Positions 2,488 through 59,715 of a stretch of 64,000 nucleotides of DNA are shown here, in pieces (the first letter of the stretch is position 1; each line of letters opens with the position of its first letter). Made by a program: the position numbers and the translations under genes. The stretch lies in assembly GCF_026210795.1 (NCBI RefSeq), contig NC_089432.1:62001-126000 (forward strand). Direction: 5' to 3'. The notes under the pieces were generated by a model that saw only the letters and a program-made list of their open reading frames with translations, had not been told where the DNA came from and searched no databases. The DNA is from Rhizophagus irregularis (Eukaryota).

Positions 2488-2497
2488 TAAGTAACCT

Positions 2498-9811: not shown

Positions 9812-9856
9812 TTACTTAATTTTGAATAATTCTTTTTTACATAAAGAAAGATAGCC

Positions 9857-10826: not shown

Positions 10827-10829
10827 ACT

Positions 10830-11636: not shown

Positions 11637-11667
11637 TTGAATTTTATTCTTACTTAGTTTAAATACT

Positions 11668-15172: not shown

Positions 15173-15197
15173 GACCCTTTAATTCTTCTATTTTTTT

Positions 15198-16289: not shown

Positions 16290-16333
16290 ATTACGACAAA
16301 TTAAAGGAAAGATTTCAGACTTCAAATCTCAAG

Positions 16334-16654: not shown

Positions 16655-16694
16655 TACTACCTTCTAAAAGTATTCTTTATCATCTGAATCATCT

Positions 16695-35500: not shown

Positions 35501-36726
35501 TAACATTCCCGATTCAAAGAGTTTTGCTAGATTTTCCCTATCAGATGAAGGATCTGGTGCTTTTGTCCAAAATTCAATCAAATGCCGTTTTTTCATAAAT
35601 GGTGTAATATTTGTACAACCAGAAGCGCAAAACATTGCTCGCCATGCACCTAATTCTTTTTCTTGAAATTGATAATTTTTTGGATAAATCTGATATAAAA
35701 TTGTAGGAAATTGAATTATTGTATTAGTTTGATCGTACCAGTTTGTGAATAATTTTGACCAACTTGAAAATGTGTTGGCAATTTTACGTTTTTTTATATT
35801 TTGTTCGAATATAAGATTCAATATATCAATGTTTTTCCAATTATCACTCGTACAAATAATTAAATTTTTACTCTTTTCTAATTTATTCAATTCTGTCAAT
35901 ATTTGTTGAATGTTATAATCAGTAATTCCAAATAAAGTCGCACCATCATATTTTTTAAGAATACCGATAGTTTCCCAAATTTTATTAGGTGTAGTATCCT
36001 TATTATGATATAATTTTATACCTTCATTATAAATATCTAAACTGCATTCATCTTCTATAGATTGTACAAAAAGTGAACGTTTGTCTGCATATTTTGTTAT
36101 AAGTGTAGAAAGAGATCCATGACCAGCACCATAACATCCTTCACGAGATGAAACACCAATTTTACTAACTACAATTAATATCTGATCTAAGCGAATAAAT
36201 ATTGGAATAAATGAAATATCAGCTACTAACTCATGAACAATTGCTTCATTATCAAATCCCATTACAGCTAATCCTGAATATTTTGTTTTATTACTAAAAA
36301 TTTGGCTATACGTGTTATTAATAGCTGCAGTAGCTGTTAGTTGAGTTCCGGAATCTTTACCATCACAAATACAACGAAAACATGGGTTATGTGTTTGCTC
36401 ATCATTAAGAACTGTTATTGCAAAGTTCTTACCGTTAAGACAACAATTAACAGACATAAATAGTCGATAAGGTATTGGATTTATGCAGTTTTCGTTAAAT
36501 TTGCACGGTTCCCACCAATTTCGTGCATATATTCCATAATGCAAGTCTTCTGAAATAATTCCTTTAGCTAAAAGAGTTACTATATACTGTTTTTTTTTGC
36601 TCATTGTAAAAGTTTTTATAACAAAGAAACCGAAATTCCAAAAAAAGTTTTTTTATTAATAACGAAACTCGTAAAATTAATTATAGATTGTCGATCATTT
36701 TATCCTATCGAGTTCCGATCTGTCAC
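32598..36726. mobile_element. Sola3-like DNA transposon, TTAA target
   Basis: TIRs GGGACCGATCGCGACTCAATAGG and CCTATCGAGTTCCGATCTGTCAC; TTAA on both sides; contains a multi-exon DDE transposase. Confidence 0.8.
33034..36604 (-). CDS. Multi-exon Sola3-like transposase
   Basis: IVDYKMRILPRSARETKAEFFGKRGWTLH, ISDNGAHYH, FLEPGEAKTTIDSHH, C-terminal GWALK; ORFs separated by short GT-AG introns; exon borders approximate. Confidence 0.72.
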
Positions 36727-39289
36727 TTAAGTTTTTTTTTATTTTTACTTAAGGGAACGTAATTAATTCCCTTTCTTTTATTTTTAGGAAACCTGGACGT
36801 AGATGAAGCCATTAACGACCAGGATTTAAAAAAAGAACGAACTATGGTAAGTTTGTTTCTTTTTTTAAGTTTTTTTTTATTTTTACTTAAGGAAACGTAA
36901 TTAACGTTCCCTTTCTTTTTTTTAAGAAACCTGGACGTGGACGAAGTCATTAACGACCAGAATTTAAAAAAAGAACGAACTATGGTAAGTTTGTTTCTTT
37001 TTTTAAGTTTTTTTATTTTACTTAAGGGAACGTAATTAACGTTCCCTTTTCTTTTTTAGTACGAAGGACCAGATCCGAATCGGATTCGGATCGTTCAAAT
37101 TGGATTCAAATGGATCTAAACCAGATTCAGATCAAATTGAACCAGATCTGATCAGATTCGGATCAGATCAGATCTATTAAAATAAAAATCAGATCAGATC
37201 AGATTTAAGTTAAATCCAATCTGAACCGATCTGTTAGGAGCACTAATAATGCATATATAAAAAATTATACTATATATAATTGCTATAAGATGAAAGGTAA
37301 ATCCATATAGGATATCAATCTGCTATATTAGAATTTCGCTTACTTATAATAAAGGTCACCATAGAAAATTGATTCTTTACTAATAATTTTTACCTTACTT
37401 TTTTTTTAAATTCTATTGGTTAATTAGCTAAAAAGGAAAAAATCATAACAATATAACAAATTTCCTTTTATAGTAAAATTTGCAAAGAATTTTATATATG
37501 ATTTATATAAGCATATGTTTATTTTTATATATATGTTGTTATCCCTGTCTGCTACCCAGCGGTAAACAAAGTTTCCTGCTTCTGTTATATGTACTCTCAG
37601 CAAAACATTAATATTCTTGCTTGGTTTAGTTTTAAATCTTTAACTCAATTTTCATCATTTTCTAAGTCACACACAGACTTCTCAATATACATTAGCCACA
37701 CTTGGGCTTTAAAGTCACTAGTCTCGGACTTTCTTAATATACAAGCCACACTTAGGCTTCTCAATAAACCACACTCGGGTTTCTCAAAATAATACGAGTC
37801 ACACTTGGGACTCCTTAATTCTTTATATTCATATTCATTCCATTATTTTAATACTTATTTAACATTAATTAAAACTTAGGCGAACCATAAGAATATTCAA
37901 AATAACTTTTAATAATTAACGTTTTTACAAACATTTATGAACCCTTCATCCATATGATTGTGTACATTCCGACTAATCGAACTACCATGTTCGTGCGTTT
38001 CTCATATATCAAATGGTAAAGGAATTCATTATTTAACATACTTTTTCATCATAAGAAAACAGTATAAAAGAGTCGATAATAATTAATTATGTGTAAAAAG
38101 TATTTTATTTATATTTTGATCTTCATAAAATTCACAACTAATCTAATTACTTAAAATTCAAAATCCTCACTGATGACTGTGGAATTCACTTCCCATTTCG
38201 CTCCTATTTAAACCAACTTTCTTATTATTTCTTTTCTTACTTCTTATTTCTTTCTAATATTTTATGTTATGTGTTATCTTTTATGTACTATCTTTTATGT
38301 ACTATCTTTTATATGCTATCTTTTTGATATACTATTTTTAATATGCTATCTTTTTAATATGTTATTTTTAATATACTATTTTATATACTATTTTATATGT
38401 TATCTTTTTTATCTTTCAAATATTACATTGTAAAGAAATAATTTATAACCCATCTTTATGGCTGTGCTATCTTTTCTTTAAAATAACATAATCTTTCAAA
38501 TATTATATCGTAAAGAAATAATGTTTTTCTGTATCATCTTTTCATATTATCTTTTATATTATCTTTTGTATTATCTTTTATATTATCCTTTGTTTTTCAA
38601 TATTTTATGTATTTTCATTAAATTCAATTTTAATTCGCTATTGTCTCATTTTATATGTTATTTCCATAATCTATCTTTTGTAGCTTATAGTTACTCCTCC
38701 TAATTATTTCTGTTGATGAACTTGATAAACTGGTTGCTAAACCGCATCGATCGACCCTCTTGATTGATCTACTGGTTCGTCGTTAATCATTTAATAAACA
38801 TTACATCATGTAGACCATTTCTTCTCCTAAACATTTATCCTTTCTGGCTAATTATTTATCCGATTATGTGACTTTCTACCATGTAATCTTTTATTCGATA
38901 TATTATTTATCTATTCCATTAAGTTCAATATCTATGGTTACAATGTATATATCATTCTATACAATATTTCTTTTTTATATACTCCATATTAAGGATGGTG
39001 CTGCAAATATGTAATTGCGGAATAATTGTAATTTACAGTATTGCAGAACATTGCAGATTTTTAAATCTAAAAATCTGCAGATCTGCAAATCCGCAATTAT
39101 CTGCAATTCCACAAATACTGTATTTGGCGGTAAATAAGCATATTTTTTTGCTATGAGGGTGCTTAGTTTTGGGGTACTTTTCTTGTGCTAGTAACCATGA
39201 TCGTTTGTACAACAAATTAAATACGGTATGATACTCGCGTTGCTCCTGGTACTTCTCGTAATGCGAGACGACGCATACCTATTAAAATC

Positions 39290-41189: not shown

Positions 41190-42470
41190 CTTGGATTTCA
41201 AAAGGTAAGCGTAAATTTCTTTTTTCTTTTGTCTTGGGAATGTCATTAACGTTCCTTTTGCTTCTTTTCTTTAGGGGACGCCTTCCTGAACCCGGTTTTC
41301 AGCTTGGGCTATTGAAGGTAAGTTAATAATAGAGGTTTTCATTTTTTTTTGTCATTAGGAACATCATTAACGTTCCTTTACTTCTTTTCTTTAAGGGACG
41401 TCTTCCTGGACTTTTTTTTCAGCTTGGATTATAAAGGTAAGTTGGAGGAAGAGTTTTTTTATTTTTTCTTGTCTTTAAGAACGTAATTAACGTTCCTTTT
41501 ACTTCTTTTCTTTAGAGGAACGCCTTCCTGGACTTGTTTTTTGGCTTGGGTTATAAAGGTAAGTTGGAGAAAGAGTTTTTTCTTGTCTTTAGGAACGTAA
41601 TTAACGTTTCTTTTACTTTTTTTCTTTAGGGGAACGCCTTCTTGGACTTTGATTTTGGCTTGGGTTATAAAGGTAAGTTGGGGAAGGGTATTTTGTTTTT
41701 TTGTCTTTAGGAACGTCATTAACATTCCTTTTTGCTTCTTTTCTTTAGAGGGACGCCTTCCCGGACTTGGATCTCAGGCTTGGGTTATAAAGGTAAGATG
41801 GGGAAGTGTATTTTTTTTATTTTTGTCTTTAGGGACGTAACTAACGTTCCTTTTTGTTTCTTTTCTTTAAAGGGACGTATTCTTGGACCTGGATTTCGGC
41901 TTGGGTTATAAAGGTAAGATGGGAAAGTGTATTTTTTTTTTTTGTCTTTAGGAACGTAATTAACGTTCCTTTTGCTTCTTTTTTTAGGGAAACACCTTCT
42001 TGGTCTTGGATTTCGGTTTGGGTTATAAAGGTAAGTTGGGAGGGAGGGCATTTTTTTTTTTTTGTCTTTAGGAACGTAACTAACATTCCTTTTGCTTCTT
42101 TTCTTTAGGAGGACGCCTCTTGAACCTGGATTTTGGCATGGATTATAAAGGTAAGTTGGGGGAAAGGTATTTTTGTTTTTTTGTTTTTAGGAACGTAATT
42201 AACGTTCCTTTAGCTTCTTTTTTTAGGGAGACACCTTCTTGGACCTGGATTTCGGCATGGGTTATAAAGGTAAGTTGGGAAAAAAGTATTTTTGGTTTTT
42301 TCTTGTCTTTAGGAACGTAATTAACGTTCCTTTTGTTTCTTTTTTTAGGGGACGCCTTCCTGAACCTGGATTTCAGTTGGGATATAAAAATAAGTCAGGG
42401 AGGGGTAATTTTGTTTTTTTAGTCTTTGGATAGTCTTTAACATTCTCTTCTTTTTTTTTCTTTAGGGGTC
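41190..42470 (+). repeat. Exon/intron-like tandem array 3 (~120-bp units)
   Basis: About 11 copies of TATAAAG|GTAAG...AGGAACGTAATTAACGTTCCT...TTTAG|. Confidence 0.88.
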
Positions 42471-42735: not shown

Positions 42736-43416
42736 AGTAGGACAATCTTGGGGGTTCTGGGACAGCGGCTATCACATAGGTCTACCATAATTTAGTGTAC
42801 CCCCAGACCACCTAGCCTTGTTTTCTGATATGATAACACTATACCTGTTTTTCTATCCCCAGACCACCTAACCTTGATTCCCGATATGTTATTACTTGAT
42901 AGCTAAAAAGAACCCCCTAAGCGTTATAGATAAGATTAACATCATTTATTCCTAGGCATTATTACCACGCATGAATCCATTCCAGGGTATCATAATTTTA
43001 TGCTATATCAGATTGCCTTTATAAGTGCCAAAGGTATGAAGGACACGAAGTGTCTGTAATACCGATGGCACGATTCAGCAATCCATTGTGGCATACTATT
43101 TTTATGATACTCTAAAAGGGATTCATTCGATGATTTAAGCCATTCATGCTCTAACCAAAAATGTATAGCAGGAAGGCAACTAGACATATTGTAAAGCTTT
43201 CCCTGCTATACGAAAAAATCTGGGACAGTGAAGTCTAACCAAAAATCTGACCCAGGCTTCAACCAAAAATGTATAGCAGGAAGGCAACTAGATATGTTTT
43301 AAAGCTTTTCCTCCTATACGAAAAATTCTGGGACAATGAAGTCTAACCAAAATTTAACCCTAATCATAAATTGCTCTGATTCTTTGACGAAGCCTATTTT
43401 CATACCGATTTTGATA
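42736..43416 (+). repeat. Left TIR of element B
   Basis: Reverse complement of 59033-59715; contains internal direct repeats. Confidence 0.95.
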
Positions 43417-43596
43417 ATAACTCCCAATATGAGATTGACATCGACCACTAGATGAACCTGTAGGTTTACCACATACAGCACAAGGAAAGCGTGATTTTGT
43501 CTTCCAATGAATGCGACAACCTTCTGGCCTCACACAAGGACGACCACAAGGCTTGCCTGTGTTATGTAAATATTCACAAGTATATTCTCCAATCAT
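43360..43596 (-). CDS. Small Cys/His zinc-binding protein whose 3' end lies inside the TIR
   Basis: MIGEYTCEY...KPCGRPC..PEGCRIH...CAVCGKP...RCQSH. Confidence 0.6.
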   Translation of the reverse strand: MIGEYTCEYLHNTGKPCGRPCVRPEGCRIHWKTKSRFPCAVCGKPTGSSSGRCQSHIGSYYQNRYENRLRQRIRAIYD

Positions 43597-43648
43597 TTTT
43601 ATTAAGTATAAATAAGTTAAATTAAAAAAAAGTTTACATGATATAAAA

Positions 43649-44026
43649 ATGATGTCTACCCAAGCTATACCAGCTAAGCCAACATACCGTGAAATTGAAT
43701 CAGCTCTAATTGCTGTAATTAAAGCAGGCATCCTTTACAAGAAACCAAAGGATGGTAAATTCATGTTATGTTACAAACAAAGGATAATCAAATTGCGTCA
43801 AGCAGAAGAACCAGAAAATTTTGTTCTTGAAACAGCACAATCTATTCTACCTAATGAGACAAAGTATCAGCAAATCTTGGAAAATTATAAGACCTGGTAT
43901 AGCAGAGAGCCAAAACTTTTGTCTGCTATTAATAAGCTATACAGGTTATACTATGAATTGGCAAAAGACTACTTCCTCACAGACTCCCAAGCAGATGATG
44001 AGGTAGAAGACTATCTTAATTCATAA
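43649..44026 (+). CDS. Small helical protein shared with element A
   Basis: Intact 125-aa ORF; by-eye similarity to 7717-8185. Confidence 0.7.
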   Translation: MMSTQAIPAKPTYREIESALIAVIKAGILYKKPKDGKFMLCYKQRIIKLRQAEEPENFVLETAQSILPNETKYQQILENYKTWYSREPKLLSAINKLYRLYYELAKDYFLTDSQADDEVEDYLNS

Positions 44027-45125
44027 GTACCCATTGTGGTGGAAGTTCTGTATCATCTGGTATAACCAAAAGTTCTTCCCTCACAAAGGATCTCTCTGAT
44101 TCTTTACCATCATCATCAATAAGCCAGTACAAAACTGGTTGATTTTTCTGTGTTAAAGACATATGGATATGATAAATCTTAGGTGACCAATTCATATCTC
44201 CTGCTCGACGTCTTCCACCTTCCAGATCATTTGGTTCAAGTAAGTACCTTACACTTATATTAGGTGGTAGTTTCTCTTCTTCATACCCAACAGGTCCATC
44301 ACGAGGATAAGAAGATCTGGAAGACACTCGTGATTTTTTTATAGCTATAGCAGGAGATATACCAAGTTGTTGGGTCACTGAGTTATTTATACTTTCTACA
44401 GCAATAGGTAAGTTTTTTACCCAGACTCGAGATCTCGTTTTACCTAAAGTTAGTAAGTCAGATGCATCTTGAGAGGGAAATAGTTTCTCAACCAAGGTAC
44501 GATTATATCGCTCCACAATGCCAACAGTACGCTTAGACTTGGCCTTTTGAATCTTTACACCATGGGAAGTCATCAGCTTTTCACACTCACCTTTAAACTC
44601 TGAACCCCTATCTGTAATCAATAATTTTGGCCAAGTGAGCGGACATGTTGTATCATCATATACCTTTTCAAAAGCCCGAGCAATAGTATGAGAAGTTAGG
44701 ATTCCCTGTCGATTTTTAACACTGGTTGAACCTATAGGAACACTTTCTTTATACCTCGATGCTATATCAACTATATTGAGACAGAAAAGATAAGTCACAT
44801 GTCCAACCTTGTCATATGGCATATACAAAATGTCAGCTTGATGAACTTCATTGGGAACTTGTATAGAACTAAAACTTACACGAGAGATAAATCGGGGACG
44901 AGGTTTGTGGACTTGATGTACTGCCTGTCTTTCAAGCCAATCCTGCACTTCATCTAAGGTGAAATCATATCCAGCATTTTGTGATGTCTCATACAACTTT
45001 TTGGCAGTCCTCTGATATCCAGATGGTTGGTAGAATATCCTGCATAAAGCCGAAGTCACCTCTACATTTCGTGCTTCATCAGAATCTATTGGAATAATAG
45101 GAATCAATGGGAGTTGAACAGGCAT
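44016..45125 (-). CDS. Polinton-type rve integrase, intact, no chromodomain
   Basis: FYQPSGY..KKLY...VQDWLERQAVHQVHKP, HQADI, ITDRGSEF, VERYNRTL, NWSPKIY...FVREEL; ATG at 45125. Confidence 0.93.
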   Translation of the reverse strand: MPVQLPLIPIIPIDSDEARNVEVTSALCRIFYQPSGYQRTAKKLYETSQNAGYDFTLDEVQDWLERQAVHQVHKPRPRFISRVSFSSIQVPNEVHQADILYMPYDKVGHVTYLFCLNIVDIASRYKESVPIGSTSVKNRQGILTSHTIARAFEKVYDDTTCPLTWPKLLITDRGSEFKGECEKLMTSHGVKIQKAKSKRTVGIVERYNRTLVEKLFPSQDASDLLTLGKTRSRVWVKNLPIAVESINNSVTQQLGISPAIAIKKSRVSSRSSYPRDGPVGYEEEKLPPNISVRYLLEPNDLEGGRRRAGDMNWSPKIYHIHMSLTQKNQPVLYWLIDDDGKESERSFVREELLVIPDDTELPPQWVLMN

Positions 45126-47191
45126 ATCTTGATTTGTTAAATAGCAACTTTGATTTGCGCAAACAGCTAGTTCAAGAGGAAACAAATAATATTTCCAATA
45201 AGGAGAAAATCCGTAAACTCACAAAGGAGATAGAGGCATGTGAACGATATATCTTCTATCTTGAAAAAAATCTTGTTTCACGTGAGGATGAAATCGATCG
45301 GTTAAAGGCAGAGTGTCAGTCCACTTTAGTTGAACTTGGAAAGTATCGAGATCACTTAGAGTTAAAGGAAGAGGCACTTGTTGCCCAGGATGAACGTATC
45401 ATTCAGCTTGAAGACACAGTAGATAAACTCAAAAAACGCATTCAAGAATTATCTTTATGTAAAGGAAAGATAGAAATGGATGAAGATAATGAATTATTCA
45501 ATCCTATTCTAAGAATACTAGACCGCCGACGGGCAGTTGCAGATTGTGTGTCTGAGATTAGACTATTTTTTGATCGGAATAGGATTCCAATTCCACAAGA
45601 CATAGATGATGTCTTTAATGCTACACTCAAAGTCTTGATGAAATTATTCGTCAAGCTGCTCTAATGCAAGAAATTGGTGTAGACCAACTAAATCAGATAG
45701 AAGGATTGCAGACATTACTTGGAGAATCTTTAGATCGTACAAATACTCTTAATCAAGACTTAATAAGAGTACGTGATGATTTTACATATGAGAGAAATGC
45801 TCGTAGACACTGGGAAACTATTGCACAACAGAATCAAGCACGTATTGCAGGAATACAAATAGCCAATCTAGGTATACGTTTTCTGAATAGACGCAAAGAT
45901 GCACAACTGGCAAACCAACAGAATCAGCTGGTAAATCAACAGAATCAGATAGCAAACCAACAGAATCAGATAGCTGAGCATAGAAGGAATGCACACAAGC
46001 TGATGTTACGCTATAATGCTGATACAGAACGTTGGAGAAGAAGGCATGCAGGTTGTATACGTCAGGCACAAAACTGGCAAAGACAATATAGGATTTCACA
46101 GACCCAGGTACAAGCACAGGCCCAAAATATTTTAAATTTACAACAACAAATATTAGCGTTACAAAACAATCCTCCAAACATGGCTACAATACAAGATGTC
46201 ATGCATACTATATCACCAGGTCTTGCACAGTTACCATTTTATGATGGACAAGAGCCGCCAGACTCTTATTATCAAAAGCTTAGAGCTGTCAATGAGATGG
46301 CTCGTCCACTAGCTTTTGCTGGTTTTAATGCTGCTATGAGATGCAGTGTTATGAAAAATAAAATGTCTGGTAGATTTATTCCTATTCCAGCAAATAATCC
46401 ATATAATGCCAATGCTGCTATTAATACAGAACCAGAGTTTCTAAACTGGCTGCAAGGAAAATATAGAGATGTGATGGTTGGAACAAATCAAGGTGCTATA
46501 ATAGCACTCATGAATGAATCATTTTCTTCTATAGATACACCAGATACATATGCAAAAAGGATTCGATCATTAGCACAAGGACAAGTATATGCTGAAATTT
46601 TACCTTATCTATATAATCATTTGCCTGATGTTTTAGAAATGAGAGTTAGAATTGCTGCTCCTGCTGATCTTGATGCTTTCTTTAATGAGTTACGTAATAA
46701 ATGGTATGAAAGTGGAGGGCGAAAAAATCCAACCACTATAGTAGAACAACCACAGAATAGAACTGCATTAGAAAAGCTTGCAGATATAGCAGTACGTCTT
46801 GGCTATACTGGTGACATAACAAATCCCTGTAGCAATACATACTTTCATTGAGAGTGATCTTACCAGAAAGTTAGGTGGACAAACACAACATCTAAGAAGA
46901 GATCACTTCGGAACTGGTCAGGTTAAAAAGGTGACAAAGACAACCAAATCTTCTCCTAAACGTCATTGCTCAAACTGTGGTAGAACAGGTCATTCCAAGA
47001 ACAAGTGTTCACGGAGTAGATGTACTAAGAAAGTTAACAATACTCACATAGTTGACTATGAAGAATCTGAAAGTGATGAGGAAACTGATGAAGAAACTGA
47101 GGAAGAGTTAACTGAAGAAGAGGAGGAGGAGGATGAACCTCAGAATTGCTTTAGTGTAAAAAAAAAACTTGTCGACGTGGAGTTTTGGTAA
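45107..47191 (+). pseudogene. gag: Gag-like polyprotein (coiled coil, capsid-like domain, CCHC zinc knuckle, acidic tail); two 1-nt frameshifts
   Basis: LPFYDGQEPPDSYYQKL, WLQGKY, DTPDTYAKRI...HLP..LEMRV, CSNCGRTGHSKNKC (CX2CX4HX4C); frameshifts near 45630 and 46830. Confidence 0.8.
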
Positions 47192-48099
47192 AAAACAAAG
47201 GGAAGAAATCCCGTACTTCCAAATCTAAAAGAGAACCTATTCTCAAGAAAACTGATGAAGTCTTTCATGCAGCACTGAAGTCTATAATTGCTTCACTAGC
47301 AGCACAATGTCCTAAAGAAATCCTCCTACAGATTAATGCTTATACCAATCAAGCATATGAGAATCTGAAAGACCCGCTTTTAAATCATTTTGTTAGTGAC
47401 TATCCAGTTAGTGAAAGAAAGAAACTCTGGGATGTTCTTTCAGCAAATATGCAAGACATTTTATCTCCTTTGGTTCATATTGTTAATACTACAATAACGC
47501 CGCTATTGCCAACTCCTCCTGTAGATGCGCCACCTGAAGTAGAACAAAAAGATGATAAAACATTGAATCATGCAATTCGTGCTTATCAGCAGAAAAACTT
47601 ATACTGGCCAAGACCCATAGAAATCAACTTTCTGCGGTTAGATGATCCCAATGATGTTGCGACCATTTCCTGTAAAATCAAAAATGTATGCATACCCTAT
47701 GCCATGATCGATACAGGGTCTGACTCCTCAGTAATCTCTGAAAATGTAGCTAAGCATCTAGGTCTCAAAATAGATCGGAAGAATGTGCATGCGCTTAATG
47801 GTGTAGCTGGATCAACCAAAACTCTTGGCACTATCAATGAGATCCCTATAACCATCGGAGAAGGAGAAAATTTGATCACCATTTCAGATGAATTTTCTGT
47901 CATACCTACTGAGAAGGATCGAAATGGTAAGGACAAATCATTGCTAATACTTGGTACACAGTGGCAGTATCGTGCAGGATGGGAACCGGTAGTAAAGGGA
48001 GAATTCAAAGCTAATGTGAATGGTAAGTCTATTTCCATTCCTCTTTCTGTTCACAAGGCTCAGCGAAATGTCTTTTCAGTTGAGGTTAAAAAAAACTAA
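47155..48099 (+). CDS. Retropepsin aspartic protease in the -1 frame of gag
   Basis: YAMIDTGSDSSVISENVAKHLGL, LNGVAG flap, LLILGTQW; frame opens after TAG 47152 just before the A10 run. Confidence 0.88.
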   Translation, partial: CKKKTCRRGVLVKNKGKKSRTSKSKREPILKKTDEVFHAALKSIIASLAAQCPKEILLQINAYTNQAYENLKDPLLNHFVSDYPVSERKKLWDVLSANMQDILSPLVHIVNTTITPLLPTPPVDAPPEVEQKDDKTLNHAIRAYQQKNLYWPRPIEINFLRLDDPNDVATISCKIKNVCIPYAMIDTGSDSSVISENVAKHLGLKIDRKNVHALNGVAGSTKTLGTINEIPITIGEGENLITISDEFSVIPTEKDRNGKDKSLLILGTQWQYRAGWEPVVKGEFKANVNGKSISIPLSVHKAQRNVFSVEVKKN

Positions 48100-48416
48100 C
48101 TGATCGCACCTGCCAGTATTGTAATAAGGAGTTTCCCTATCCTTCTTATCTCAGACAACATTTTTTACGAAAAAACCCATGTGCAATAAAAGAATCCCAT
48201 GTGCATCCCACGCAAAGCCCATGCGAAGTTAAAAAATCTCATGTGCAACCCACGCAAAGCCCATGCGAAGTTAAAAAATCCCATGCGCAACCCATGCAAA
48301 TTCTATGCGCAGTTACCACTGAAGGAGGAGGAAAAAAATCCCATGTGCAAACCATGCAAAGACCGGAGCAAGCAACTGTTCCTATTCGACTATTTCTCTC
48401 CTCTGGTTATGAATAG
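48090..48416 (+). CDS. Zinc-finger/repeat ORF in the -1 frame of the protease, with no ATG upstream of the finger
   Basis: KKLTDRTCQYCNKEFPYPSYLRQHFLRKNPC followed by SHVQPTQSPCEVKK repeats; starts at A AAA AAC right after TAA 48087. Confidence 0.6.
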   Translation, partial: KKLTDRTCQYCNKEFPYPSYLRQHFLRKNPCAIKESHVHPTQSPCEVKKSHVQPTQSPCEVKKSHAQPMQILCAVTTEGGGKKSHVQTMQRPEQATVPIRLFLSSGYE

Positions 48417-48853
48417 ATGTAAAATAACGTTCTCTAACGTAATTCAAATCATATCCAGGATGAAGATTATTGGGTTTAGGAAGACGATCTCCACATAAAA
48501 CAATATCATAGGCCATGTTTGGTGATGATTTACGAAGTTTATAACAGTATTAGTGTTTATATGATGATTTGCGAAGTTTATACTATGTATTTATCAGATT
48601 CAGTCGATCAGAGGTCCCTTAGGACCGGACAACTCGAAGGATTACCAGCTCGGAGGATGTTCATCAAGCCACATGCGTGTACTCCTGTGCAACAAAATAA
48701 ATGATCACACGGCAGGGTCTGTACAACATCCACATTTTTCACATATACCCCCACTTGGTATTTTTGCGCAAATAAAATTCTTTTTTATTCTTGTCCTCAC
48801 ACACCGTACTTTGAGCCAATAACATTTCGCAAAAAACAGTATAAAACCCGAAA

Positions 48854-50354
48854 ATGTCAGTCACGTTATTCTGCCTTGTCAAAGGAAATACGACCGCGAA
48901 CGCTTTCGAAGTTGATATTGAGAAGGACAAGTCTATTAGCAAACTCAAGGACGCCATAAAGGCGAAAAAAGCACCAGAGTTCGACAATTTTCCTGCGGAC
49001 AAGCTCAGGCTATGGAAAGTGGAAATTGGTGGCGATCACCTTGACGATCAGTTGAAGAATCTCAAACTCAATGGCAATGACGAGTTGTCTGCAATAAACG
49101 AAATTGGAGAGTACTGGACCGAGACGCCGCCTAAGAAACATATTCATGTCTTAGTCGAACCACCCGTGTCAACCGTCACTTCAAGTCGCGAACAGGAATT
49201 ACTTGACCAAGTCGCTTCGTTGCAGGCATTACTCAACAAGTCCGTGCATGGTACGTATTTTTTACTTACGAGCCGTCAGCGAAATCTTCAGGTCATGAGA
49301 CTAACCCGGTTATTGCATTATAGCGTTCGATGTCGTCGTGAGTCCGAAGCGAACGAAGAGCTTCAAGTGGACAGTGAATATCGAACACGCGACTCTCGAA
49401 GGACTAAAAGAACATATACGTGGAGTTCACAAGACACCGGCCCTCGACAATGATGGAGCGGAACTTAGCATGTTAAACGACAGTGGGAAATTCTCTCCTC
49501 GAAACGATCAGGGTCTTCGTGAGATGCTTAACGTATTCGTGTCGAAGAACAATCTCAAGTTCACCGTGTTCATTGAGACGCCATCAAAACCATTTTCAGA
49601 TTGGTCATTCCCGAAGGTGTGCCAGCTTTATGGTCTTGGCGAGTCAGACGATCCCTCGTTATCAGTGTTCCCGCCTTTCACTTGCGAGTATAAAGAACTG
49701 GAAGAGGATTCTTCCAAGGCAATACTCAAACATCTTACTGCGGAGCTGAATGCTCGTCTCAAGGCTATTCCAATCAGCGGGAATGAAGCATCGAAATCAC
49801 AATATGTCTGCTCCTATCTTGTCGCCGGGGTAAATCTGTACGAGAGGAAGTTCGAGCTTCGACCAGAAAAAAACATCACAGGACCCAATGGACACGGACC
49901 GGTTGATTTCGCAATAGACTTGCTCCAAACTGCGAAAACTGTCGGTGTGACAGAGGTAAAGGACGAAGATTTTTTTAAGGGTATTGCTCAGAATGCCGTT
50001 CAACTCGAATCCGCATTATCAAACCGTAAACGTAAGGCGAATGAGATGGAGGAAGAGAGTGTGTTTGTAGGTAAGGTATTCGGGATAATCACAGATGCGG
50101 AAAAATGGTACTTTATGGAATGTTCGCTCGATGATCAGGACAGGCTAAGATTCAAACTATCCGAACCTATTGTCGTTGTATACAAGGACGAGAATATGGA
50201 AAACATGGTTAGGAAAGTTCTCGGACATATTGCATGGTTATTGGAGGAGGTGCAGAAGCCGGATTCAGCTTCACAAAGTGAAGAGAGGGCAATAAAAAAG
50301 CCTAGGTCATCGGGTAATCTTAAGGAAAAATCGGATACGGTCGTTAAGTCATAG
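48854..50354 (+). CDS. CRN: Crinkler-family effector (CRN ubiquitin-like N-terminus + REase-fold C-terminus), two exons
   Basis: TLFCLVKG..AFEVDI..LKDAIK..LRLWKV..HIHVLVEPP; intron 49251-49323 (GTACGT..GACTAAC..TAG) joins in frame; GPVDFAI..TEVK..GIAQNAVQL. Confidence 0.88.
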
Positions 50355-50652
50355 GATAGAAAATTAGTCATGTATCACGGGCAAAGTCCCGAGCATTTTA
50401 ACTCGTACTTCAACACCTGTATAATGGGATGCGTCCCGAACCAATGTATTTATTTTTTATCCTCAGTCTGTATTAATAAAACATTCACTCGAAAACACGT
50501 ACACACACGTTTTAAATGGCAAAGAAATAGATTTTATTATTCATGATATATAGGTTTTGCAAACGAAAAATAAAACGGATAGCGGATGTTTCAAGTGAGG
50601 AATTTGCCGGCCACTAGACCATATAATGGCAGTTCCTTCCCGCTATCCTTTA

Positions 50653-51392
50653 CTAACTATTGTTAATTTCATTATTGATATTACTACTGCTATTGATATT
50701 ACTACTACTATTACTCGCGAAACTAACTACCCTTTTCCCCTCCCTTTCTATCCATGGAGTTAATTTATCCATCGTAGTTTTTCTTGGATTCGTTCTGTGA
50801 TGATAGAAACTGGCTAATGTGCCAGGACTTAGTCCGATCTCATCGGATAATATATTGTACATTTGTGTAGGAGAGCGATTCCCCTTTTTTCTTCTCTGAT
50901 CGAAAATGGCAGTGAATTCAACCCAATACATTTCTGTTTCGTCGTCATACTCGGAACGTTTGCCAGTAGTTGAACGACTTGCAGAAGAGAATCGGTTTGA
51001 TCCTACTAGAAGAAATGAGGCGCAGGTTATTATGTAACGTCACGGGCAATGAATCATATGCGGACTGCGGACTGCGGACTGTGACGTGCATGCTTACCTT
51101 GTGAGATTACGTCATTCCGCCACTCATTTTCAGCGCGCATTTTTTGAAGTTCATTATTTAGCGCCAGGACCGTTCTTTCAAGTTCATTATTTGTCCCGGA
51201 CTGATATTTACGAAAAAATGACAATGCACCAGCTAAAATTGCGTATGTGAAAACATTTCCCGAAAAAACATTCTGGAGCATATCCATTGTTAAGATGCCT
51301 CGGGTATGCAGGGTTCCCAAAAGAACCGGCATCTCATGGATTACGATTATGGAAATGAAGAGTGTAATCAAAAAAATATCACGTCTGTTCAT
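50653..51392 (-). CDS. Two-exon gene: hydrophobic N-terminus, coiled coil, C-terminal HTH-like domain
   Basis: Intron 51097 to ~51003 (GTAAGC...TAG) joins ORF 51054-51392 in frame with ORF 50653-50931 (LSDEIGLSPGTLASFYH..TNPRKTTMDKL). Confidence 0.55.
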
Positions 51393-52051
51393 GCTATCTG
51401 TAGTTTAAATTGTTTCAAAAAGCACTATGCAATTTTATTTGGGACTTTTGAGATAATAACAGTTGAAGAGTGTTAACTTTAAAAACGGGAAACAAGGTCC
51501 TTTTATACTTTATTAATACTGCGCGAGAGATTTAACCGCATGATTACTAAAGGGGTATCCGTAGTTTTTTTATTAACACCCAAAATTGGTAGAGAATGAG
51601 TAATTGCGCAATCTAGAATATAGGTTAACAGTTAAATAATGCCCCTTTTCATTGTTATACAGTCACTTCGATCGCCTTATAATGCAATAGAAATCGATCG
51701 ACGGTACCACAGCATCAAATCAGGGGCATAACAAACATTGTTGACTCATGGTCTGTTTTAATTAACGTAATTTACGCTACACAAAATTTATGCCAGAACT
51801 TTCAGGACCGCCTATTACTCAGTATTTTTACGTATATACTGCGGCATATTTTACATATGATTTCGTGACTTATTCTCACATAATTCAAAAAAATTCTGCG
51901 GCTGCGGTAGTCACATGGTTGAGCAATAGATTATATGCGGTTACGCACTACACAATTATTATGAATTATAGGTGATCAAGCAAGGATCAGGTAATTCATG
52001 TCAGCAGGCAAATGAAGATAAGTATTTTAGTACAAACTACAAACCGTAGCT

Positions 52052-52402
52052 ATGGAACCAGTCTTACCAAATGATTCTATCCTTAGTGCAGAATACGAGA
52101 CCCTAGGGTTAATAGACAATGATAACAGCAATGGATCTGTGATAGATAATGAAGACGATGAAGTTTGGGATGATGGTGATGAAGATGACTCTGATGATGA
52201 TCACGACATTTTGGGTATCAGAGACGGACACGATTACATAGCTTGTTATGGTAGAGATGCTTGGGATAAACTTATTCAAGCCCAGGAGGCTCGTCATCGT
52301 ATATCCTTCTTAGGTTATTTACCCAACGCCTTCCAAATATTTCTGAGCAAGCAAAGAATGGACTATTTGATATATTTACCGAATCATCTGCTTTTGGAGT
52401 AA
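52052..52402 (+). CDS. Acidic hypothetical protein
   Basis: 116-aa ORF with a D/E-rich stretch, inside element B. Confidence 0.4.
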   Translation: MEPVLPNDSILSAEYETLGLIDNDNSNGSVIDNEDDEVWDDGDEDDSDDDHDILGIRDGHDYIACYGRDAWDKLIQAQEARHRISFLGYLPNAFQIFLSKQRMDYLIYLPNHLLLE

Positions 52403-52885
52403 GGGAACACAATGCACTTTTAGACGCACTAGCTGATCCAGTGAATGGTTTAAGTCTTTTCGAATATGATCAACTGTATTACTAATTCATCGGAAGACTT
52501 GCTTTATTAATACGCGAAAAAACAAATAGAGGATCAATCCGGCATTGGTTCGGGACGAAGCCCGCAATACATGACGCCTGTGCTAATATACACGCTTAAT
52601 TTTTTAGCCTTTGGCAGTGATACTGCGGCCACTTTACATATGATATCAATGACGTAATACTGCGGTGTGATTTCGTGACCTTTCTCACATGATTCAAAAA
52701 ATGTTACTTTATTTATTCGTAACAGCAATCGATACATAAAAAACGAATATATTACGTTACAAGTCATAATAATAGCAGGTTCGCCCATGTCACAACACCG
52801 AAAAAGGACCCCCTAGATCGGTGTAGTAATTATAACTTTCTTTTCCTGATAGGTGCTATTGAAGGGACATAATAGATAATAGTAA

Positions 52886-53190
52886 TTATTTTTGCCCTGA
52901 GCAGACCAATCCCCCCATATGCCTGAAACTGCTGACGTTGTTGGACTGATGCTCATTCACCACCGAAGAGTCCTGTTCCACTTTTGCGAGTCTGGATTCG
53001 GCATCCTCTCCATTCTTCTCCAACTCCTCGATCTTATTCCCTAGTTCCTTCCTGAGATTTGCTACCTCGCGTTTAAGATTGAAATTCTCAGCCTCAAAGC
53101 TCAGTACTACACCGTTTAAATACGTTAAGTTCGGCATTCTCAGCCTTCAGCTCAGAGATACACTGTCTCAAAACTTCAAGTTGGTTAGCT
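52886..53190 (-). pseudogene. Coiled-coil protein fragment
   Basis: Heptad-rich EAENFNLKREVANLRKEL; appears rearranged. Confidence 0.35.
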
Positions 53191-53359
53191 TTGTTAACGG
53201 ACATTATAGAAATTATATTCGACATGAATTTGTTTAATGTTATGAGAAAAAAAAATTACGAAAGCGGGACACTGCGTACTTTATTTAATAAAACATTGCC
53301 GAAAGTCGGCTTACAATACATAAAAATTGCGAATATATCGCTACATGATACAAAAATTA

Positions 53360-53656
53360 TTATTCTGATTCTTTTTCCTTCGGTAATACAGGGTGTACGG
53401 TGATATGAACGTAGTCTGTATCGGGTTGACCATTAAAATATTCAGAAATTAAAGTCTGCGATTGCATACGTCTTTCATTAACACTGCTAGGATGAATTTG
53501 ACGAATATCTAGAGGAATGTTATTAAAAGACGCCCCTAGATTGTTTCGAATTGCGGTTTCAAGAGCGCTAACTGTTTGTCCCCTGTCAATTGTAATTCTT
53601 CTATCACATAGAAGATCATTAGAAACAATACGGCAGTTGAGAGTAATATCGGTCAT
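53360..53656 (-). CDS. Stand-alone CRN-N-like ubiquitin-like domain protein
   Basis: MTDITLNC..ITIDRGQTVSALETAI...ISEYFNGQP..VHITVHP. Confidence 0.6.
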   Translation of the reverse strand: MTDITLNCRIVSNDLLCDRRITIDRGQTVSALETAIRNNLGASFNNIPLDIRQIHPSSVNERRMQSQTLISEYFNGQPDTDYVHITVHPVLPKEKESE

Positions 53657-53884
53657 ACTGGAATCCTGAATACATATGGAGGCCCTTAGTGAGATTATTT
53701 GCATGAAAACATTTTCATTATTTTCAATCTCTTGCATATACGCACCTTAATTTTTTGCGAGAAGGTTGAGTAAACTTCTACCTGTCCTTTTACGCTTTAT
53801 ATACTGGAACTTGCAGAATAAGAAGCCGAATACCGAATATAAGAAAGATGATTAACATTGTCGTATGATGCCAAGAAACCTTTG

Positions 53885-54160
53885 AAAGCACATGCAAGCG
53901 GAATTTTCAAACCTTTTCACATGAAGATCTTCCTCGCAAGTCTCAAAGTAGCTTTACGCCTGGCGATCTCGGAATTGCAAAGTCCTCAGCCTTTCATAAC
54001 ATATGCTTTTGACGTTAATATTGACTTATAGGGTAGACCTGTGTTGCGTGTAGACTTTCTTTCACATTTTTCTCACATTTGTTTGGGGAAAAAAATAAAG
54101 GTACTAGTTGGCATGAATATTTTTTCAATATATGCGAAAATTAATATGTCGCACAGACTT
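53885..54160. repeat. Copy of the dispersed repeat at 28110-28375
   Basis: Collinear matching blocks in the same orientation. Confidence 0.8.
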
Positions 54161-54529
54161 GCCTTGTGATCTGCCTATTTTTGTCGCACAATCAGTGGCT
54201 CAGCAAAAATTGATGATCGTCTCTCCGCAATGCCTGACCTGTTGATCATATTCTCCGGGACTAGGGCACCTGTCTGTTGACCTTTAGCGTTTCCGACACT
54301 TGTCCGCGACGAGGACCATGTCGTTTTTTATGTCAATGACAGTATCCTTGTCAACAACCTCGTCAATATCATCTTCAAGTGATTTAAGACGGGAGCAGTT
54401 TTCCTCGCCGGATGAATGTTTTTGTCGTACCATGTCATTTGTCATTTTAGTGATGTGTCCTAATACTAACCGCACGTCTAAACAGATAATACGTTATATA
54501 TGCTATATCTTGTTTGAAAAAATAAATTC

Positions 54530-54826
54530 TCACCTTGACCGATTCTCCAGGATCGCCTTCTCTTGCCCTTCTGGGCACTCTACAGAAGCTAGTAGTGAAT
54601 AATAAAATGCCTCTACTAAGTCATAAAAGGCTTTTGGAATGTTTGGTACAGGGCATTTCATAAATGCATCAATACTAGTCTTAGAACTTATGACCATTTT
54701 AGCTAATGCCTTTATACTTTTTATTGCATCCTCTACATCTTTAAAGAGACCTCTCTGAATTGTAACATGCACTAGGTCATCGATATATTCTTTACTATGT
54801 ATATCATAGATTGGATCGTCTTCCAT
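54530..54826 (-). CDS. Hypothetical protein downstream of pPolB
   Basis: MEDDPIYDIHSKEY... ORF co-oriented with pPolB; may be spliced to 54284-54475. Confidence 0.4.
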   Translation of the reverse strand: MEDDPIYDIHSKEYIDDLVHVTIQRGLFKDVEDAIKSIKALAKMVISSKTSIDAFMKCPVPNIPKAFYDLVEAFYYSLLASVECPEGQEKAILENRSR

Positions 54827-54899
54827 TTTAACTACTGAGAAAAAAATATAATTTATTATTAATATATGCCTAAGTATCACTAAACTATTCTATATCATT

Positions 54900-57800
54900 C
54901 TAATATTTCTCTGGTAATCTGGTTCCTATAGCTATTTTTTCTGCTGTCTCATGACTTGTGCCACGCTCAAGAAGTTTCTTATATACTTTAATACGCCAGT
55001 GTCCGAATGGTAAGGAGGATATACCATCTGACCAAATCCAGCGTTTTGTATCAATTGGGGATAATGCCTTCTTCTCTGACTCAATTAGTGATATTACATG
55101 ATTTTTTGTACGCATTCCTACATTCTTGGCATAGAAGATATTATTTTCAAAAAGACAGTCCCGATATACTTGAGTCATAGGATCGAAGATTTCATCTTTT
55201 TCTACTGTATCATCTAATAAAGTTCCACCTAAAGATGGGAAATATGTGTCCTTAGCCATATCACTCATACCCTTCTTGCTTACTCCTTTATGTTTGGACT
55301 TTGTAGACTTGTCAGCCAAGATATAGTGGTAAGATTTTGCACGGATGTGGTAGGATTCAGTAATTACATTTCCAGGAGTCTCATCCTTGAAAAGTCCGAT
55401 AGTCTTGGTATCATTAAGGTCAAAGAGATCTGGACGCTCTGCCATATCCTTGTAAATATCTTCTGTCTCAACATGGTAGATAAAGGAGTCAGTATCCATA
55501 TATCCAAGTCGTGCCTTGTCTCCATACTTCTCCTTGACAAAACCATACCAGAAGCAGTACATTAAGAGTTTACTGAGACCGAGGACTGATGCACCAATGA
55601 TAATAGGCTTATTGAGAATAACACTAGCCTTACCCATATGTGCTCCTACAAGTGTGTTGCCAAGTTGACGAGCATACTTGAAGGAGGGCTTGCGGATTTT
55701 CTTAAGGAATTTCTTCTCATCATTTTCATTGATCATTCTCATAAGCTTGACATCCTGATATTTACGTACATTCTCCATAGTCTTGCCATAGACTGAGTTA
55801 TTCATGAGTTTAAAGAAGTCTTTCTCAAATGAATTCTTGGATTGTTGACGTAAATTTGTATTTTTTGCAATATAAGGAGCTAACCAGTTATCCTGATCAA
55901 ATGATAGGACTTGTGTAATCTCATCTACAACCATGCCTAACTTAATGTAATACTGGAGCTCTTGGTAATGTATGACATAATCTTCATGTTTACCAAGATG
56001 TGGAACTAACTTCTCTGTTTCAGGGAATCGCCCTCCATCTAAGTTATTAACAAGTTTGGTTATATATGGACTTAACCTATCCTTTTTTACAGCTATACTA
56101 TTAACTGCAGGAGGTAAATCTTGTAGATAATCATGAGTCTTAAGAGGGAAGTGCGCTTTGATATTTAGGAAGTAACCACGGGCAGCATCTGGTTTTGTAT
56201 TAAGAATTACATTAAGTATTTGCTTCTGCTTATCTGGATTCTGTTTGAAATATTCTGGAGATGCTTCCCATCTGTAATTACCAATAGGTAAGTACTGGCT
56301 CATAGCCCATCCATACAGATTGTTTGCATCTACATAGGAAATCCAAGTAGTAGGTTTAGAGGGATTAAAGGAGTCACCCATCTTAGGGTTATTGGCTTTT
56401 AAGAAACGGTGTCCAGCCATAGCTATTCCTCCACGTTTAGCCTTTTCAGTAAAATCATGCATGGTCATGTCAGTGAATAGCTCTATCCTGATTCCAGTCA
56501 TCTTGAGCATGCCATCCCAAGAAAGTGCTGGAGCAGAGACATAATGACTTGGGTCAAGTCCATAATGATGCATCGCTGTCTGTCGAAATTTTGTCCAGAC
56601 ATCTGCTAGGAGAAGAACATCAGTCTTAAGGTAAAGGTCATGATACTCGCCCAAGTTCTTGCAGCCAAATTCCTTCCAAACTTTTTGTGCATGTTTGTAA
56701 TTATTCTGAGTGATCTCTCCTCCAAGAGTACTATAAAAGTCATGAATAGATGGGAGTTCTGTCTCCTTGAAACGATCATGTGAATCAATATATTCATAAG
56801 GATAAACCCCCTTACGTGTGATTAGGTCAATATGTTCAGACGAGAAGTTTTTAAAGTGTCGCTTTGTGAGAGGTTTATCTGTCCCTAAATTCTTTGCAAG
56901 GTTTGCAAGACTGGAGGCCATGAACTGCATGCTGTCAATGTACTTGAATTGCCCTACCTTCATGGATTTGTAACGTTCGAATGTCTCTGCAATAACTTTG
57001 ATTTAATGTGCTCCAATTGATCGTCCAACAGATTCACAAACTAAATGGGAGTCATAGCCACGGAAATTGTGGAAGACTACAGGAATTGGAGTCTTCCATG
57101 CTTCAATTTGAAGCTTAAGATTGCATGCATTATGAGCAGCCCCACGAAATTTACCTGTGATGTGGCAGTGATCCCAAACTTTTTTGTCCTGATCGAAATT
57201 TCCATTACATATCCAACAATTAACTGCTTCAGTGAATTCCTTTTTAGCTTCCTCTGTTACAATACGTTCTACTTTTACTTCTAAAACATCATTAATCCTT
57301 CTTAATTCTTTATCAAGTCTGCGGACAAACTCTTCTGTTGCATTTGGTCCTCGGTATAAAAATGGCCCCCATGTCTCATCAGTTTCAATCCAGTGGACCA
57401 TATAGCAGAAGCTATTAGCCTTTTGCTCCATAATCTTATGCATATTTCCACCATAGTTTTCATTACACTTTCTATTATCAGCCTCAAAGTCTGCAATAAT
57501 TACACATGGAGCATACATTGTTCGGTTAAAATTCTTAAACTCCTCAAAATCATTCTTACCTTTAACTGGTAACTCAACTCTTTGTGGTGCCTCACCTAAT
57601 CCAAAACACCATTCCTGATGATTAGTTAGAGATTTAGACGATGGAAAGCTTTGGAAGCACCGATTGCAAAGATACTTCTTTCCCTTGTGGGATGTATCTT
57701 TGTATATTAAAGCATCAGGATTCTTAATCCAAAGGAAGTGGTTCTTCTGACCATACTTCCCTTCATCTGATTTTGTAATATCTGTAAGGGCCATGAGGTG

Positions 57801-58958
57801 AATGATATGTTGACGGTTGTAATTTTTACTTGCAATAACAGGTTTTGGAATACCAGTTTTCTCCTCCCATTCCCATACATTAATGGAGATCTCAGGATTG
57901 AGGTCCTCAATCTTGCTAAATATGCGTGGACAAACAGGAGTGGGCATGGGAATTGCATTGAGATTGACTTGTTCCAAGTATGGCTTAAATTTTTCTGCCT
58001 GAAAGATTCGCTCAAGTTTTTGTGTATGTCCATCTTTATATGCAAAGTAAGCACCTAAAGCCCCTTGCAAACATTTTTCAGAAGGCAAACCTGTGTCCGG
58101 ATCTATGAGATCTTTGTTATCCGGATTGATAGTGCACTTCTTATTTGCAAGTGCCTTAGGTGTGAGAATGTATGAGCCTCCTTCTGCTCGGCGGTAAGTA
58201 TACGTCTCAATAGTTAATATATCTATACTAACAATTTTCCAACCAGACCCTCCTTTCATAAATTTGACAATTTTATCTGTGATATCCACTGCTGATTTCG
58301 TTAAATGATCATCTATATCATTCTTTAAAAGAAGTACACGCATGACTCCTCTATGATAAACTTGCTTATATGTTCCACTATTATCTGTATATGTAGCCAA
58401 TATAGTGATAGCTGATTTGATTTGCCCCTTTTCTTCAAGTTCACTCTCAAGAATTTCTGTTATTTTCTGACGGGTATCAGCTATTATACTTGGGAAATAT
58501 GGTATATCTCTAACATTTGGTTTAAGATCAGCTTGCCATACTGTCTTATGTTTTAGAGATTTATGTGGACGTGCAGGATCATGACCTCTTTTTACAAATT
58601 GAATATCACACCATCTTCCTCTATAATCTCCTTGCATATAAGCAAACCATTCATTATCTGTTTGTGGAGCTCTTCTTCTTCGTGGAGTATATTGATTGTA
58701 ATCACCAGGTCCTGCTAACCATTTTGCTAGTTCATCAATTGTTAAGTTAGGAGTTTTCTCTGTATGAGATGGGATAACTTCAGGTGTGGGATCCTGGAGT
58801 TGCTCCGGTTGTGGTTGCAATTGTACAATCTCAGGTGTGGGATCCTGAGGTTTAGCTGCAGGTTTGCATAGAAACTTTCTATTTTGATGCCCACGAAGCT
58901 TTTGTGGAGTTGCAAAAGCCTTTCCACATCTATCACAAGTTCGATTACTTGTTGCCAT
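54900..58958 (-). pseudogene. Full-length protein-primed family B DNA polymerase (~1350 codons) with a single TAA at 57003
   Basis: N-terminal Zn finger; SEKCL..NHFLWIKN; ExoI IIADFEA; CWIC..WDHCHITGKFRGAAHNACNL; ExoII FHNFRGYDSH; ExoIII YLKTDV; YVDANNLYG, KLMNNSVYGK, YMDTDS; the two ORFs are in frame (GAH*IKVIAE). Confidence 0.95.
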
Positions 58959-59032
58959 ACTGGTTGTGTACTAATAACCTAAAAATTTTTTTCTTCAATT
59001 AATAAATTCTAAAATGTTTCCCATCTTATTAC

Positions 59033-59715
59033 TATCAAAATCGGTATGAAAATAGGCTTCGTCAAAGAATCAGAGCAATTTATGATTAGGGTTAAATTTT
59101 GGTTAGACTTCATTGTCCCAGAATTTTTCGTATAGGAGGAAAAGCTTTAAAACATATCTAGTTGCCTTCCTGCTATACATTTTTGGTTAGACCTGGGTCA
59201 GATTTTTGGTTAGACTTCACTGTCCCAGATTTTTTCGTATAGCAGGGAAAGCTTTACAATATGTCTAGTTGCCTTCCTGCTATACATTTTTGGTTAGAGC
59301 ATGAATGGCTTAAATCATCGAATGAATCCCTTTTAGAGTATCATAAAAATAGTATGCCACAATGGATTGCTGAATCGTGCCATCGGTATTACAGACACTT
59401 CGTGTCCTTCATACCTTTGGCACTTATAAAGGCAATCTGATATAGCATAAAATTATGATACCCTGGAATGGATTCATGCGTGGTAATAATGCCTAGGAAT
59501 AAATGATGTTAATCTTATCTATAACGCTTTAGGGGGTTCTTTTTTAGCTATCAAGCAATAACATATCGGGAATCAAGGTTAGGTGGTCTGGGGATAGAAA
59601 AACAGGTATAGTGTTATCATATCAGAAAACAAGGCTAGGTGGTCTGGGGGTACACTAAATTATGGTTAGACTTATGTGATAGCCGCTGTCCCAGAACCCC
59701 CAAGATTGTCCTACT
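59033..59715 (-). repeat. Right TIR of element B
   Basis: Reverse complement of 42736-43416. Confidence 0.95.

Follow-up and report, generated by a model that had tools for sequence, protein, structure and literature searches.

The 64-kb stretch of DNA analysed here (the window) contains two TIR-bounded elements, A and B, and the zinc-finger frame under study belongs to B, a Polinton-like element without assigned strand (42736–59715) that has the ends AGTAG...CTACT, a 5-bp target duplication (GATCC), and 107–108 bp repeats in its TIRs. Its RVE integrase gene (44016–45218, minus strand; Pfam rve, E 8.5e-7, under the curated cut-off) is divergent from gag, and its pPolB gene (54900–58970, minus strand; Pfam DNA_pol_B_2, E 1.5e-10), whose product has an N-terminal C2HC finger beginning at 58937 on the minus strand, is convergent with the gag-protease-finger unit. 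Between the finger and pPolB lies cargo (48845–53746, no strand assigned) with ORFs for Crinkler N-terminal domains recognized by Pfam at 48845–50354 on the plus strand (ORF 48845–49453) and at 53360–53746 on the minus strand. This cargo is missing in two related loci (L002 and L003), in which pPolB directly adjoins the finger, tail-to-tail. Long TIRs, the 5-bp duplication, pPolB, and the RVE integrase are all Polinton traits; a Pfam scan, using sequence only, of 15 element-B ORFs recovered no double jelly-roll capsid, penton, adenain, or packaging ATPase. The other element, A (approximately 2028–17156), contains a D5-like helicase region, a weak Pox_A32 ATPase match, broken PolB-like pieces, a Gag-like ORF, and an integrase, together with a retropepsin-like ORF that starts at an A-run (14423–14432), ends in DKK*, and has no finger behind the protease. 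Arrays of 50–140 bp A/T-rich repeats lie around both elements (957–1973, 17170–17991, 32046–32523, 36715–37064, 41207–42466, and 60423–61133), element A being located within one of them, and the window also holds long near-perfect palindromes (19922–20332, 23170–23644, and 62720–63142).

The element-B gag gene (45101–47191, plus strand) encodes a coiled-coil N-terminal part, a capsid-fold domain, a CCHC knuckle detected by weak Pfam matches, a basic stretch, and an acidic tail. In the window copy gag is split into three frames; compared with sister contigs, one base is missing near 45623 and one is extra near 46825, and both forms are present in run X2. The gene is intact as one ORF of 670–785 codons in L003, L006, L012, L024, L035, and L040. 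Because Gag is broken upstream, the window copy is probably unable to make a Gag-protease-finger product itself, and its pPolB is likewise interrupted, by an in-frame stop near 57004. These interruptions go beyond what the preliminary description of this DNA had noted. The middle domain of Gag was modelled for L003 from a 9-row alignment (pLDDT 82.5), and the model resembled the capsid domains of PEG10 (CA C-terminal domain; Z 9.8, rmsd 2.5, 81 residues aligned), Copia (Z 8.8), and Arc (dArc2; Z 8.4), and the best 35 fold-match rows were all retro-type capsids, with Z values in the range in which helical folds can match by arrangement alone. Foldseek returned the same retro-type capsid class with no match at E ≤0.001. 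From this model, Gag is predicted to adopt a retro-type two-lobed helical CA fold followed by the CCHC knuckle.

The linker and retropepsin ORF (47155–48099, plus strand; Pfam Asp_protease_2, E 8.2e-7) is in the -1 frame relative to gag and ends in KKN*. The junction between the two, as identified from the sequence and from relatives, is an A10 tract (47158–47167), and a tract of A9–A13 was present in 22 of 22 sequences showing that junction. A candidate 6–7 bp stem, GAAGUG(G) with (C)UACUUC, follows this first slip site (47174–47220, one pair broken in the window copy); it occurs in one group of relatives at a spacer of 6–7 nt, with a loop whose length differs by multiples of three and without covariation. 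The sequence TACTTCC after the site is invariant in 11/11 rows of alignment A3. We rejected TACTTCCAAR as a splice acceptor, since AG is present in 7 of the 11 and AA in 4. Five eukaryotic gene models (P0006, P0040, P0064, P0071, and P0092) join Gag to the protease across the first site via differing apparent introns, which are probably invented and hide a frameshift. The protease has 187 homologs. Of the 120 listed, KKN is the terminal tripeptide in 58; in 31 others a KK lies among the final five residues, in 16 it is found somewhere in the last 25, and in the remaining 15 it is absent from that stretch. Homologs with species names come from Rhizophagus irregularis, R. clarus, R. diaphanus, and Glomus cerebriforme, which makes a Glomeromycotina fungus the likely host. 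A typical member ending in KKN (P0057) is filed under a Mycoplasmataceae endobacterium MAG and is possibly host DNA binned with the symbiont.

At its 3' end the protease ORF reads GTT AAA AAA AAC TAA (48085–48099) and so contains the heptamer A AAA AAC, as the preliminary description had stated. This second slip site (48087–48099, plus strand) consists of a -1-frame TAA (48087–48089), an A8 tract (48088–48095), the heptamer (48090–48096), and the zero-frame TAA (48097–48099). Among the 67 stop-terminated ORFs of at least 100 aa in the window, the protease alone ends in AAAAAA[CT] plus a stop. The -1 ORF (48090–48416, 108 aa) begins KKLTDRTCQYCNKEFPYPSYLRQHFLRKNPC... and has its first Met at 48294, past the finger. 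It encodes a single C2HC finger, C-x2-C-x12-H-x6-C, recognized by Pfam and by alignment (48111–48182, plus strand), 3.0 copies of a 42-nt (14-aa) repeat detected by TRF (48187–48315), which form a variable spacer that keeps the frame, and a C-terminal motif, VPIRLFL (48378–48398; VPI[RHY]LxL in the family), which is conserved in relatives and had not been mentioned in the preliminary description. The -1 stop at 48087, the lack of an ATG before the finger, and the 14-aa repeats had thus all been read correctly. From this stop to the first Cys (48111), the sequence contains neither an ATG nor a near-cognate start nor an AG; the nearest AGs are at 48083, upstream, from which the frame runs into the -1 stop, and at 48115, past the first Cys. 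The resemblance of the finger to the N-terminus of element-B pPolB that had been pointed out was also found, with the same spacing and 13/26 residues identical by eye. Blastn returned no DNA match between the two fingers, and we therefore rejected a recent duplication of the finger out of the pPolB gene.

To analyze conservation, sister copies were drawn from metagenome contigs, read contigs, and protein sets. The metagenome scan gave 62 loci, of which 8 were dropped for lack of a C-terminal anchor, 3 because they ran off the contig, and 3 for having fewer than 50 nt downstream, leaving 48. The finger was in the -1 frame behind an A8–A10 tract in 35 of these (including L051, whose finger contains a stop), in the +1 frame in 4, in which the tract is apparently one base short by eye, and in frame 0 in none; 9 loci had no finger. 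Among these 9, one carries a decayed finger (L052), two are disrupted (L046 and L056), and six (L008, L031, L035, L043, L059, and L062) have a different tail of 20–42 aa that is not a finger but again follows the same tract in the -1 frame. In L008, L059, and L062, the protease stop and an ATG overlap as ATGA. In a 30-row protease tree, from which short or broken proteases were left out, the finger was found on both sides of the deepest split. The 28 distinct finger junctions, including that of the window, have A8 in 3 cases, A9 in 19, and A10 in 6, never fewer than eight, and all 28 contain an in-phase heptamer, A AAA AAC/T or A AAA AAA. Lys codons at the junction are AAA in 76/76 cases, compared with 300/508 (59%) upstream, counts that include near-identical copies and are not independent. 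Heptamer and finger in sister copies, which the preliminary description had named as a point to check, are therefore conserved. Viral contigs yielded one marginal locus (L001, unused) and then none, and prokaryote genomes none. A single-sequence search for the finger ORF (59–189 aa) gave nothing that scored among 11 candidates. A profile search showed that short gene-caller products of this ORF exist, with many different starts. Two database proteins (P0055 and P0121) are natural in-frame fusions of protease, finger, repeats, and motif. P0121 reads IKKKLVDRTC, which is the predicted shift product, and both are probably copies that have gained a base at the tract.

We then asked whether the frame is coding. 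In 32 distinct 60-nt blocks, pN/pS was 0.33 in the finger frame vs 1.16 and 1.30 in the other forward frames, the blocks having been picked by the finger pattern and the ratios calculated over non-independent pairs without multiple-hit correction; the protease control gave 0.24 and the VPIRLxL motif 0.38 (19 blocks). Third-position entropy in the 32 distinct finger blocks was twice that of the other positions. In 19/19 aligned tails C, C, F, P, H, and C are invariant, and these include the ligands C8, C11, H24, and C31, which makes the tail finger a C2HC finger. The spacer between finger and motif keeps the frame in 27/28 cases across 21 different lengths, from 123 to 315 nt (41–105 aa), with repeats whose sequence differs from lineage to lineage. 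The motif is missing in 12/40 finger blocks, many of them at contig ends. Altogether, these comparisons confirm, as far as sequence can, that the gag-protease unit has a third coding segment, the finger frame, which is conserved and kept under purifying selection. That it is instead the dead remnant of a captured finger gene, with the A-tract inherited by chance in an A-rich genome, is very improbable. Such a remnant would fit with the abundance of finger look-alikes, mostly in clusters labelled Nucleocytoviricota (a low recognition score makes this label a lead only), and with the A-tracts found elsewhere in the protease ORF of one clade. However, the pN/pS ratios, which largely refute this explanation, the variation at third positions, the frame-keeping spacers, and conservation across proteases that are approximately 40% to 90% identical all speak against it.

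Stand-alone proteins of the MxDRTC type (with MADRTC, MSDRTC, or MDDRTC starts) share the finger signature and start point of the tail, in which Leu replaces Met. Unlike the tail, which is single-fingered and start-less and continues into repeats and VPIRLxL, these proteins are 250–550 aa long and have their own ATG, a second finger, and other domains. The tail may derive from a captured gene in which the slip took the place of the start codon; three of the non-finger tails (L008, L059, and L062) still show the ATG at the protease stop. In L024, a convergent neighbour ORF (3441–3794, minus strand) has at its end a C2HC finger closely resembling that of the tail.

How ribosomes or transcripts enter the finger frame was considered next. 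Readthrough of the stop was rejected, the finger being in frame 0 in 0/48 loci. Production of the finger as a separate small protein, via splicing or from its own ATG or near-cognate start, is improbable. An AG of some kind is found upstream in 27/28 junctions, and the TAG stop itself supplies one in 18/28; an upstream ATG in the finger frame is present in 6/28 and absent in 22/28; three junctions have TTG where the stand-alone finger proteins have Met; and the five gene models mentioned above bridge the first site with an apparent intron. Yet these models use differing junctions, the stop at the second site varies (TAG in 18, TAA in 7, and TGA in 3 of the 28 distinct junctions), and none of the 22 models named Rhizophagus or Glomus (172–550 aa) among the 120 listed homologs enters the finger. 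The window copy, moreover, offers neither AG nor ATG nor near-cognate codon in the stretch that leads from the -1 stop to the first Cys, so that the splicing or own start which, according to the preliminary description, would undo its reading was not found there. With readthrough, an own start, and splicing set aside for the window copy, a one-base slip remains.

Because the finger frame is conserved and selected, because the window copy has no start or acceptor of its own for it, and because the A-tract at the first -1 junction is also conserved, a two-step shift leading to Gag-protease-finger is likely the best reading of these sequences. A ribosome that has already shifted once, from gag to protease, would slip back one base on the A-run before the protease stop, and this second slip would yield a minor Gag-protease protein carrying the finger, the variable spacer, and the VPIRLxL end. 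A_AAA_AAC is listed among the shiftiest heptamers for mammalian ribosomes in passages of a review (PMC5009743). Downstream of the second site we detected no conserved RNA stimulator within local stretches of 60–80 nt: the mean folding z was -0.12 (28 junctions), the RNAalifold consensus was empty (20 junctions), and stems or pseudoknots at a spacer of 4–9 nt were not in excess. Two overlapping A-rich heptamers, present in most copies, and the immediate stop would replace the missing structure. We consider a second -1 ribosomal slip on the A-run the best explanation and a reasonably probable one; 13/48 loci have no -1 finger, which counts against it.

The same one-base change could arise earlier, if RNA polymerase stuttered on the A8–A10 tract and added one A, after which ordinary translation would enter the finger frame. 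Several features agree with stuttering: the tract has at least eight A in the 28 distinct intact junctions, with a mode of nine, and is longer than the heptamer needs; the base before the KK codons is also A in 25/28; no structure follows the second site; and slippage on runs of 9 A/T has been described for bacteria in passages of PMC5009743. Against it, the tract ends in phase, most loci having A AAA AAY immediately ahead of the stop, and the candidate stem at the first site (no covariation) has a spacer of 6–7 nt, as at ribosomal sites. In addition, a third tract would be hit equally, at the cost of the protease. This internal A8–A11 tract is located in the protease ORF just before the YWP motif and the protease domain in 23/36 distinct loci (L005, L007–L018, L021, L023, L024, L029, L030, L032, L034, L042, L046, and L055), and in each of them the -1 frame stops one codon on. 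The window has only A5 at this place (47594–47598), the tract being missing in its clade and in one other. A slip at the internal tract would lead to a stop and may possibly yield a Gag-linker protein without protease; that the tract is tolerated means either that a bare A-tract is weak or that it has a job of its own. We infer from these sequence features that the slip would be ribosomal rather than transcriptional, and we favour the ribosomal slip, held to be fairly probable, over polymerase stutter, which seems unlikely. Of the MMTV-like second -1 frameshift that had been proposed, two successive -1 overlaps and a conserved heptamer thus stand, but the conserved stem or pseudoknot is lacking at the second site. 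Likewise, the low-abundance product joining Gag, protease, and finger agrees with a two-step, probably ribosomal, shift on the grounds of frame, selection, and tract.

Element B resembles beta- and deltaretroviruses in having three overlapping frames, each -1 to the last, with Gag followed by a retropepsin and with A AAA AAC as a slip site. Passages of PMC3835772 describe a double -1 frameshift through gag-pro-pol in these viruses (MMTV, HTLV, and BLV), with AAAAAAC as the gag-pro site of MMTV and HTLV and with structures downstream of those sites; what the preliminary description had said about both viral groups and the MMTV heptamer matches this source. In contrast to these viruses, element B is a DNA element with TIRs and pPolB, its A AAA AAC lies at the second junction and not at gag-pro as in MMTV, its second site has no conserved pseudoknot or stem, and its integrase is encoded separately, on the opposite strand, and not as a part of Pol. 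The third frame of the element-B family is a finger tail of 60–120 aa and not Pol, reverse transcriptase, RNase H, or integrase, and no reverse transcriptase was seen in element B or downstream in 16 longer translated loci. The earlier phrase that the finger stands where a retrovirus would have pol can hence be upheld for position only. The family would work like a retroviral double frameshift, as judged from its frames and tracts, yet it fails two defining features, the 3' structure and Pol as the third frame.

With Polintons/Mavericks element B shares TIRs starting with AG, a short target duplication, pPolB, and an RVE integrase, and Polintons in Rhizophagus irregularis are cited in a passage of PMC11296320. 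Unlike them, it has a predicted retro-type capsid fold and a retropepsin where jelly-roll capsids and adenain are expected, as well as likely expression by frameshift. Gag and retropepsin are labelled on some PolB element in Fig. 5 of Starrett et al. 2021 (PMC8502044; bioRxiv 697771), so the Gag-plus-PolB architecture has probably been noted already; the portions of the PMC8502044 text and supplement that bear on it hold neither a frameshift nor a finger tail, and the relevant passages of PMC5751038 and PMC10328495 add nothing to prior knowledge here. In the literature outside most subscription journals and Repbase Reports, we found no DNA transposon reported to use a double -1 frameshift, and no Polinton-like element with Gag reported to have a finger tail. 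Potato virus M reportedly passes from its capsid to a zinc-finger protein at a shifty stop. This parallel was considered but not leaned on, owing to the caution with which passages of PMC5009743 treat the case.

Several roles may be considered for the tail. A doubtful one is binding of the finger to the element's own DNA, e.g., to the 107–108 bp TIR repeats, which would tether the genome to the Gag shell. Each of the 19 aligned tails has a zf-C2H2 match in Pfam (best E 3.7e-5; under the curated cut-off for the window member), their nearest PDB sequences are mostly DNA-binding multi-finger proteins, the TIRs do contain repeats, and, as no jelly-roll capsid was seen, any particles that form would need something to connect the DNA with the shell. 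However, in contrast to classical C2H2 arrays, the tail has one finger only, with Cys instead of His as the fourth ligand, and a lone finger rarely recognizes a specific DNA sequence. At helix positions 3 and 6 of the finger, where bases would be contacted, the residues vary, and position 3 is often hydrophobic by eye. Moreover, Gag already has a knuckle and a basic stretch, and six loci have a tail without a finger.

The role that we tentatively put first, although we would not give it even chances, is that of an adaptor for protein binding, of which each Gag shell would hold a few copies and whose most likely partner is the N-terminal finger of pPolB. The single C2HC finger and the six loci in which the same tract leads into another short -1 tail are consistent with an adaptor, which fits somewhat better than DNA tethering. 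A C2HC finger begins pPolB in both the window and L003. In pPolB proteins the terminal protein is part of the N-terminus, and certain C2HC fingers associate with one another or with other proteins. By pairing with the pPolB finger, the tail finger would let the polymerase and the linked genome ends enter the particle without a covalent Gag-Pol fusion. Regulation of the fused protease by the tail, through dimerisation or cleavage timing and with VPIRLxL as a pseudo-substrate or added strand, appears unlikely. Selection acts on the motif, whose distance from the finger is free (41–105 aa) and which resembles PIEINFL at the N-terminus and TIPLSV at the C-terminus of the protease; this resemblance, though, was judged by eye, and the conserved finger would be left unexplained. 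Complex prediction of the protease dimer with the tail, run without alignments and with the fold of the partner uncertain, gave a score of 0.02, which counts neither in favour of binding nor against it.

A wider reading, which we offer as speculative, is that Gag-bearing, protein-primed elements of fungi have swapped the jelly-roll capsid for a retro-type shell, and that up to three structure-free A-tract slips per message (gag to protease, slip-to-stop before the protease in one clade, and protease to tail) would set protein ratios. The last slip would add an exchangeable adaptor that pairs with the pPolB finger and packages the polymerase and terminal-protein-linked DNA, a non-covalent stand-in for Gag-Pol. 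Because the start-less tail escapes gene callers, a conserved coding segment is missing from the annotations of arbuscular mycorrhizal fungi. The family also constitutes a natural series, with A8–A10 tracts, three stops, no structure, and the internal tract as a control, for asking whether recoding in fungi is driven by nothing more than the adjacent stop or the length of the tract. The tail itself is a tangible starting point for asking how a retro-type shell could come to be loaded with the genome or the polymerase of a DNA element.
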